This document shows, one piece after another, positions 454 to 973 of a DNA stretch of 64,000 bases. Position 1 is the first letter of the stretch, and every line of letters begins with the position of its first letter. Both the position numbers and the translations under genes were made by a program. This DNA comes from Escherichia coli (GTDB lineage Bacteria; Pseudomonadota; Gammaproteobacteria; Enterobacterales; Enterobacteriaceae), in the NCBI RefSeq assembly GCF_030013595.1, contig NZ_CP122768.1. One strand, written 5' to 3'. The notes below the pieces were generated by a model that was not told the origin of the DNA, made no database searches, and saw nothing but the letters and a program-made list of their open reading frames with translations.

Positions 454-528
454 TGGAGCGGGTAGCGGGAATCGAACCCGCATCATCAGCTTGGAAGGCT
501 GAGGTAATAGCCATTATACGATACCCGC
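454..528 (-). tRNA. tRNA-Gly, anticodon UCC
   Basis: reverse complement folds as a 75-nt tRNA: anticodon stem TCAGC/GCTGA, loop CTTCCAA, T-loop GGTTCGATTCC, 3' CCA; near-identical to host glyT as recalled. Confidence 0.85.
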
Positions 529-531
529 ATA

Positions 532-607
532 TGGTGCCGACTACCGGAATCGAACTGGTGACCTACTGATTACAAGTCAGTTGCTCTACCTACTGAGCTA
601 AGTCGGC
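532..607 (-). tRNA. tRNA-Thr, anticodon UGU
   Basis: 76-nt cloverleaf: acceptor GCCGACT/AGTCGGC, anticodon loop CTTGTAA, T-loop TTCGATT, 3' CCA. Confidence 0.85.
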
Positions 608-609
608 AC

Positions 610-686
610 TGGACCGCCACCGGGGACTCGAACCTCGCACACTCAACTTAAAGGGTTGACGCTCTTTCCCGATGAGCTAGTGGCGG
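610..686 (-). tRNA. atypical tRNA-like gene, apparent anticodon UUU (Lys) or degenerate Arg-like
   Basis: acceptor CCGCCAC/GTGGCGG, T-loop TTCGAGT and 3' CCA are present, but the anticodon loop is CCTTTAA (C at position 33) and the T-stem has one A-C mismatch. Confidence 0.5.
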
Positions 687-687
687 T

Positions 688-763
688 TGGTGGCCCTTGC
701 TGGATTTGAACCAGCGACCTGGCGATTATGAGTCGCTCGCTCTCACCACTGAGCTAAAGGGCC
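688..763 (-). tRNA. tRNA-Ile2/Met, anticodon CAU (ileX/ileZ-like)
   Basis: 76-nt cloverleaf: acceptor GGCCCTT/AAGGGCC, anticodon loop CTCATAA, 3' CCA; close to E. coli ileX as recalled. Confidence 0.8.
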
Positions 764-973
764 GGGCGCAGGATAATAACGTTACAAAATCAATGTTGCA
801 AGCATTCAAAAATCACCTGGTTAAAAATCACCCTTACTTCCTCCACCAGCGCATTCACCATGTCTATCCGAGATAAGTGGCACAAAAAAAACCACATTTG
901 GGCGGGTTTTGTTTGCTTTTGCCATCACGTACAAAATCGGCAAAATATCAGATTTGCATAAAATATATGCCTT

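Follow-up and report, generated by a model that had tools for sequence, protein, structure and literature searches.

A probable late-region tRNA module of 933W architecture in a lambdoid, P27-like prophage of Escherichia coli

Four closely spaced tRNA genes follow the gene for a Q antiterminator in a lambdoid prophage at the left end of the window, a 64,000-nucleotide stretch of Escherichia coli DNA (contig NZ_CP122768.1). Together with its flanking signals this array is probably a late-region tRNA module of a P27-like prophage, sharing the architecture of the corresponding module in the Shiga toxin (Stx) phage 933W and working in the manner proposed below. As such it is ordinary and already known: the same architecture was annotated in the 1999 GenBank record of 933W, and the module is present in hundreds of genomes. 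The array most likely sustains the translation of phage genes.

The array and its transcription signals

In the whole window ARAGORN called just four tRNA genes, which lie on the minus strand between 454 and 763 (Table 1); all four exceed the gathering score of 29 bits under the Rfam tRNA model, with 72.5 bits for tRNA-Ile2(CAU), 44.6 for tRNA-Lys, 73.8 for tRNA-Thr and 65.6 for tRNA-Gly. The gaps within the array measure 1, 2 and 3 nucleotides, the CCA end is encoded by all four genes, and the array starts 210 nucleotides downstream of the antiterminator gene. The product of the latter belongs to the Q82 family; it matches Pfam PF06323 (E = 3e-92) and phrog_304 (1.7e-108), and shares 77% amino acid identity with Q of phage 82 and 74% with the Q82-like Q of phage 434. 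NCBIfam assigned neither Q nor the DUF968 protein encoded nearby to a family; Pfam and PHROGs did so. The original prediction, made from the sequence alone, had described four tRNA genes 1–3 nucleotides apart just downstream of a Q-like gene, and both the genes and their spacing are borne out by these standard tools.

The first tRNA carries the anticodon CAU and was labelled ‘Met’ by ARAGORN, a common mislabel of lysidine tRNAs. By its sequence it is tRNA-Ile2, which would decode AUA after lysidine modification, since it is identical to 933W ileZ (76/76) and lies far closer to K-12 ileX (68/76) than to metT (54/78). The 933W record annotates ileZ as AUA-reading, and the annotation of the CAU gene in relatives by the Prokaryotic Genome Annotation Pipeline (PGAP) is tRNA-Ile. 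The pairs C4:G69 and C5:G68, which serve as determinants for TilS, are retained. The Thr and Gly genes were correctly recognised in the original prediction as near-copies of host thrU and glyT; the two positions at which the Gly gene departs from glyT form one compensated acceptor-stem pair. A further suggestion, that they had been captured from the host, is supported by the mature tRNAs, whose sequences are the only ones that point to a host origin; no similarity to the flanks of the host thrU-tyrU-glyT-thrT operon was found outside the mature tRNAs of the array. Capture of those flanks together with thrU and glyT was considered and rejected, similarity being confined to the mature tRNAs.

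Positions 764–973 contain no tRNA; a late promoter, a promoter dedicated to the tRNAs and, between the two, a short terminator are predicted there. The candidate late promoter PR' aligns with the corresponding stretch of phage 434, which follows a Q82-like Q gene. In the region that would be transcribed first, the extended −10-like TGATATTTT at 950–942 is a candidate sigma70 pause and Q-loading element, a function assigned from what is known of Q82 and lambda Q. The likeness to the antitermination systems of lambda, 82 and 434 lies in the Q protein and in a predicted promoter, pause element and hairpin with U-run that align with 434. The present locus stands apart in that a complete tRNA unit, followed by three further terminator-like hairpins, is inserted between tR' and the lysis genes.

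Directly upstream of tRNA-Ile2 lies a homologue of the promoter that the 933W record annotates, at the homologous site, as ‘pT; putative tRNA promoter’; the −10 element and the bases downstream of it are identical in the two. Since the array has this promoter homologue of its own, it is probably not under purely late control. A competing reading holds that only Q-modified polymerase from PR' transcribes the array and that the pT-like sequence is inactive. It draws on the place of the array, which follows PR' and tR' within an operon that depends on Q, and on a match of pT to consensus at only 9 of 12 positions. Yet the −10 (TATTAT) and a −35 of the form TTGnnn are kept although the sequence upstream is of three unrelated kinds, and pT moves with the tRNAs as a mosaic module: in phage PhiR47_1 the block 453–801 recurs at 96.6% identity next to another Q and another lysis cassette. 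The 933W label, a geometry resembling that of the host ileX promoter, and the predicted terminator T1 that closes the tRNA unit also speak against purely late transcription, which is judged quite unlikely. A second competing reading, that the array belongs to a chromosomal tRNA operon rather than to a phage, is extremely improbable. The matches to thrU and glyT would favour it, but the surroundings refute it: the array stands between the Q, RusA and DUF968 genes and a holin leader, the junction between the integrase gene and host potC is 15–16 kb away, and the same module is found in sequenced phage genomes. Neither tyrU nor thrT, nor homology to the flanks of the thrU-tyrU-glyT-thrT-tufB operon, was found in the array and its surroundings, where the neighbours are phage genes; the original prediction had likewise treated the locus as phage DNA.

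Read in the direction of transcription, the order is Q, followed by PR', the pause element and the short terminator; then pT, the four tRNAs, a trailer and T1; then three more terminator-like hairpins; and finally the holin gene. The scheme that follows, which covers the activity of the promoters, termination and its override by Q, processing of the tRNAs and a benefit to translation, is proposed from the identities of the genes, their homologies, the codon statistics and the hairpin predictions. In the lysogen, unmodified polymerase starting at pT, or leaking past tR', would make a tRNA precursor and stop at the terminators T1–T3. The lysis genes would remain silent, and tRNAs could be produced without expression of the holin. 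After induction, Q-modified polymerase from PR' would ignore all terminators, and its read-through would both yield more tRNA and permit expression of the holin, endolysin and structural genes. Ribonuclease (RNase) P and 3' exonucleases would free the four tRNAs, which would then decode AUA, ACA, GGA, GGG and AAG, codons used two to three times more by the prophage than by the host.

The ileZ-argN-argO module of 933W (AF125520) presents the same order of Q, pR', one or more terminators, pT, tRNAs, terminator and cargo slot, and its record also annotates qut. Besides the first gene and pT, the two modules share the argN scaffold in the second gene, at 82% identity, and a homologous terminator sequence after the array. 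They differ in that 933W has three tRNA genes rather than four, with spacers of 9–13 rather than 1–3 nucleotides; its argN has the anticodon UCG and U33, in place of UUU and C33, and where it carries argO the present array carries copies of thrU and glyT. The Q gene is of the Q82 type here and of the 933W type there, and stx is absent here. A literature search on ileZ, argN and argO returned nothing useful, and the statements on 933W are drawn from its GenBank annotation; its genome was reportedly described by Plunkett et al. in the Journal of Bacteriology in 1999.

Table 1. Features of the tRNA module and its surroundings in the window
Feature	Position	Strand	Basis or remark
Shine-Dalgarno sequence (AGGAG) of P27-type holin	4–8	−	alignment to relatives L001, L004, L005 and L007
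Predicted terminator T3b, directly before the holin ribosome-binding site	11–36 (scan 36–21)	−	−10.8 kcal/mol
Compound hairpin and U-run T3a, in conserved holin leader	39–88	−	−19.2 kcal/mol, z = −3.6
Predicted terminator T2	122–149 (scan 149–132)	−	−13.8 kcal/mol
Predicted terminator T1, end of tRNA unit	163–191 (scan 191–172)	−	−12.4 kcal/mol, z = −4.8; conserved in relatives
Long RNA hairpin (86 nucleotides) in 3' trailer	250–335	−	folding and RNAalifold
tRNA-Gly(UCC)	454–528	−	73/75 to glyT
tRNA-Thr(UGU)	532–607	−	76/76 to K-12 thrU
tRNA-Lys(UUU) on phage argN scaffold	610–686	−	C33, U73, C1-G72
tRNA-Ile2(CAU)	688–763	−	ARAGORN label ‘Met’; 76/76 to 933W ileZ
pT homologue (TTGCAA-17-TATTAT, then GC-rich CCTGCGCCC)	773–801	−	scan match; directly upstream of tRNA-Ile2
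tR'-like short hairpin and U8	884–906	−	folding; aligns with annotated terminator of phage 434
Extended −10-like TGATATTTT	942–950	−	initially transcribed region; TGGTATGTT in phage 434
Candidate late promoter PR' (TTGCAA-17-TATATT)	962–990	−	consensus scan; −35 within 3' end of Q
Q antiterminator (Q82 family)	974–1669	−	Pfam PF06323, phrog_304
Integrase	15402–16520		abuts host potC (starts at 16687)

Codon supply as the function of the array

Codon counts for the prophage were taken from the early genes of the window and the late genes of a sister prophage, L007, and those for the host from 42 open reading frames in the window. When the 61 codons are ranked by enrichment in prophage over host, ATA is third, ACA fifth, GGA sixth, AAG tenth and GGG eleventh (hypergeometric P = 0.0014), so that these codons, cognate to the array, all fall within the 11 most enriched. 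This comparison of anticodons with codon usage had been proposed by the original prediction. The other codons at the top of the ranking, AGA, AGG, CGG and CGA, are those read by an alternative Ile2-Arg-Arg array of the same module family. The place of the cognate codons among the most enriched supports the supply of rare codons as the function of the array, and translation of the phage genes would be its most likely beneficiary.

Several observations weigh against this account of the module. The late region of the present prophage lies outside the window, and the late genes counted are those of L007; a second relative, L001, shows no enrichment of ACA. tRNA-Lys(UUU) is not scarce either: K-12 has five lys genes in one 2.3-kb cluster, and E. 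coli has a sixth. Since this tRNA is abundant in E. coli, rare-codon supply explains the Lys gene of the array poorly, and the C33, U73 and T-stem A.C mismatch of that tRNA could impair decoding. Lastly, the predicted tR' hairpin has a stability of −6.4 kcal/mol here as against −13.1 kcal/mol in L001. Its four substitutions halve the predicted stability relative to close relatives, and while a stronger version is present in 31 of the 136 loci fetched, the version of this prophage is present in none of them; a weaker tR' makes the proposed division of labour between PR' and pT uncertain.

A lysine tRNA on an arginine tRNA scaffold

The tRNA-Lys(UUU) matches host lysT at only 47 of 79 positions, whereas its identity to argN, the tRNA-Arg(UCG) of Stx2 phages, is 82–86% (82% to argN of 933W). 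The anticodon loop CUUCGAA of argN reads CCUUUAA in the Lys form, with the anticodon UUU preceded by C33; U33 is near-universal in tRNAs. Two anticodon-stem pairs and one acceptor-stem pair have changed on both sides between the two forms. Other odd features are U73, C1-G72 and an A.C mismatch in the T stem. Among 120 loci sampled from IMG/VR, 50 carry the Lys form with its anticodon loop intact; C33 is constant in all 50 and position 32 varies. Over 26 distinct members of the family the cloverleaf is 96% paired, compared with 30–53% in slid controls, and the within-lineage changes seen in the stems are mainly C-to-U transitions that preserve G.U pairing. The pairing of the cloverleaf and the fixation of C33 make the gene look like a maintained tRNA that arose by anticodon switching. 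An argN-derived Lys tRNA with C33, and lacking the motif cut by the nuclease AriB, may not have been described before.

The scaffold also occurs, unannotated and with odd or replaced anticodon arms, in the Yersinia phage YeP2 (L016, 1501–1578) and in six IMG/VR loci; the variants include the loop CAUUGCC and an anticodon arm swapped for about 30 unrelated bases, and single variants carry the anticodons UCU, GCG and UGA. The scaffold seems prone to anticodon turnover.

AriB, the nuclease of the PARIS defence system, recognises and cleaves the sequence U36AAUC|A41 (PMC12409363). A change at U39 abolishes cleavage, and phage T5 escapes through variant tRNAs (PMC12409363, PMC11464382). In the Lys tRNA of the array this stretch is U36AAGUU41, and the D loop is different at positions 16–17; the tRNA lacks the AriB sequence. 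Judged by that sequence, the tRNA at 610–686 should remain uncleaved, whereas the Thr tRNA should be cleaved, because it is identical to the host tRNA, AriB site included. Like the tRNA-Lys(UUU) with which T5 neutralises PARIS (PMC11464382, PMC12409363), the phage tRNA has a 3' anticodon stem that departs at positions 39 and 41 from the AriB site of the host. The T5 tRNA has been tested experimentally, whereas the present one is known by its sequence; it also belongs to a temperate lambdoid phage, is built on an anticodon-switched Arg scaffold with C33, and is accompanied by a host-identical, non-resistant Thr tRNA.

Two readings compete with codon supply as an account of the Lys gene. According to one, the array is selected mainly as a counter-defence module that provides spare tRNAs when anticodon nucleases of the host or of prophages (AriB, PrrC or HepS-like) destroy tRNA-Lys(UUU) and tRNA-Thr(UGU) during the lytic cycle, its argN-derived Lys(UUU) being a cleavage-resistant substitute as the T5 tRNA-Lys is against PARIS. 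The altered AriB site and D loop fit such a role, as does the constancy of C33 beside a variable position 32; the abundance of Lys(UUU) in E. coli leaves the gene unexplained by codon supply, and HepS of the Gifsy-1 prophage cuts Thr tRNAs too, UGU among them. Yet the Thr gene is a copy of thrU that would be cleaved like the host's own, Ile2 and Gly are no reported nuclease targets, resistance and rescue are predictions at the level of sequence, and three of the four genes are already covered by codon enrichment. As a reading of the whole array this is a tentative, rather unlikely possibility. The narrower proposal, that re-targeting of the argN scaffold to UUU gave temperate lambdoid phages a nuclease-insensitive Lys decoder, with which late proteins could still be produced when PARIS, PrrC or similar systems destroy tRNA-Lys, is slightly more doubtful still. 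According to the other reading, only the remaining three tRNAs matter and the Lys gene is a functionless pseudo-tRNA, carried along as it decays. That would account for C33 in place of U33, the U73 discriminator, the T-stem mismatch and the lowest Rfam score of the array, and also for the failure of annotation pipelines to find the gene in the relatives L004, L007 and L011 and for the loss of G18G19 in the L004-type variant. Decay is hard to square with an anticodon loop kept intact in 50 of 120 loci, with a cloverleaf paired in 96% of its cells, with two-sided changes in three pairs between the Arg and Lys forms, or with the bias towards C-to-U changes that keep G.U pairs, and this reading is considered very unlikely.

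In L007 the gene for the tail assembly chaperone (12082–12100, minus strand) ends GTT AAA AAA AAG TAG and contains the slippery heptamer A AAA AAG, both codons of which are read by tRNA-Lys(UUU). An effect of the phage Lys tRNA on this frameshift is an idea only, mentioned here as a possibility.

The empty toxin slot, the 3' trailer and the wider prophage

Between the tRNAs and position 1 no open reading frame of at least 40 amino acids was found except shadows overlapping the tRNAs, and neither stxA nor stxB was found between the tRNAs and the lysis genes, where an Stx-converting phage would carry them. The original prediction was therefore right in seeing no toxin or cargo gene. As candidates for smaller cargo, 192–453 offers only frames of 11–14 codons without ribosome-binding sites (by reading), and these were rejected. 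The sequence from about position 95 to position 1 is homologous to that between stxB2e and the holin gene in the Stx2e phage P27, two terminator-like hairpins included. On the same minus strand, 74–166 is homologous to the sequence just upstream of stx2 or stx2e (a terminator and about 50 nucleotides) and adjoins the homologue of the stxB2e-downstream sequence at 1–95. Here the stx flanks of P27 and 933W stand side by side, and since those of the P27 stx2e cassette meet directly, the toxin or moron slot is empty at about 95–130. The locus had been likened to the Q-tRNA-toxin layout of Stx phages, with the tRNAs occupying the cargo slot; its homology to 933W and P27 upholds the layout, but the slot itself lies downstream of the tRNAs.

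Elsewhere the slot contains stx2e, in P27, or genes of the TerB and DUF3927 families, in L007, which occupies the same chromosomal site; another relative has about 200 extra bases there. The tRNAs are a fixture of toxin-carrying and toxin-free phages alike. P27 (AJ298298) shares with the present prophage the pre-stx terminator and the leader with its terminators and, through the relatives, the cassette of two holins and an endolysin and the P27-type terminase. It differs in having ileZ and argO as well as stx2e A and B between the flanks that abut here, and in having another Q and an upstream methylase gene. In the sister prophages L007 (24995–26753 and 27090–28083) and L004 (3789–4782), which carry the TerB-family and DUF3927 cargo in the slot, a helix-turn-helix gene and a frameshifted TrmB-family gene lie between Q and tRNA-Ile2, and the Lys-type tRNA is present and unannotated.

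The array is followed by a 260-nucleotide trailer that ends at T1. Within it, the hairpin at 250–335 has a folding energy of −37.3 kcal/mol (z = −5.9) on the minus strand, as against −19.4 kcal/mol on the plus strand. RNAalifold, given eight distinct variants, predicted 30 pairs, four of them compensatory and many G.U, and the hairpin is kept even in loci whose trailer is otherwise different. No Rfam family matched it; a role as an RNase III site or as a stabiliser of the transcript is possible. A GcvB-like small RNA (sRNA) at 163–351 was rejected, its Rfam score of 22.5 bits (gathering score 42) being taken as a chance product of the GU-rich hairpin and the terminator. Also rejected was an anti-sRNA of the AgvB/AsxR type in the slot, the pattern for the conserved 3' region of about 42 nucleotides (GTATCTCATGCnnTTGCCCGAACCCAyTCGGGC) having no match in the window on either strand with up to three mismatches. 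AgvB and AsxR (Tree et al. 2014, PMC4104026) likewise lie downstream of a Q-antiterminated PR', where morons insert, whereas the hairpin at 250–335 shows no sequence relation to them and is encoded on the strand of the late operon.

The original prediction had listed two intrinsic terminators between the tRNAs and the window edge. Both were found (36–21 and 191–172), together with two further hairpins (149–132 and 88–39), making four in total. The homologue of T2 in 933W is annotated as a terminator immediately before stx2, and another is found before stx2e in P27. T3a lies upstream of the same holin gene in all relatives, including P27, where it is downstream of stxB2e. On the minus strand, bases 10–1 read ACAGGAGAAA, the ribosome-binding site of the holin gene, whose ATG lies 5 nucleotides beyond position 1 in the closest relatives. 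Because a holin ribosome-binding site stands at the very edge, and the holin and late genes follow in the relatives, the late operon by this comparison continues past the window. In those relatives the homologue of position 1 is followed by a holin, a second holin, an M15 endolysin, a P27-type terminase and HK97-type head genes. The closest are prophages of porcine enterotoxigenic E. coli (ETEC), with identities of 95.6% over 1–3100, 99% over 1–453 and 100% over 454–801.

The prophage occupies the left 16.6 kb of the window, with genes for Q, RusA, a DUF968/HNH protein, hok/sok, a replication initiator, an exonuclease and the integrase. To the right, the sequence at 40000–48000, over ptsG, fhuE and fabF, has 100% identity to the chromosome of a pig E. 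coli, which marks the host as E. coli. Its hok/sok type I toxin–antitoxin locus comprises a Hok reading frame at 4109–4264 (minus strand) and an Rfam sok match of 108 bits at 4262–4433; just downstream is a sub-threshold isrK-like match (28 bits, 4019–4100). A perfect tandem repeat at 3835–3936, with 11.3 copies of the 9-nucleotide unit ACAAACAAT, lies between a small open reading frame and the hok locus and yields artefactual ‘CLYCLY...’ reading frames.

Of 5426 complete E. coli genomes, 600 (~11%) have the module of pT and four tRNAs at a coverage of at least 80%; in ETEC1730 it is 100% identical and annotated. In the IMG/VR sample, 42 loci have exactly Ile2-Lys-Thr-Gly with spacers of 1, 2 and 3 nucleotides, and 46 have the alternative Ile2-Arg(UCG)-Arg(UCU) array.

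The direct junction of pre-stx terminator and post-stx holin leader provides a clean ‘empty site’ for the stx or moron slot of P27-like phages, which helps to define what a toxin cassette brings along. Taken together, the codons read by the two common array types match almost exactly those with the strongest excess in prophage genes, and this agreement gives quantitative support to the old rare-codon argument. The Lys tRNA on its Arg scaffold, widespread among prophages, is a candidate for resistance to tRNA-cleaving defences that can be tested at little cost; were that role true, a common prophage array would be in part a counter-defence device.

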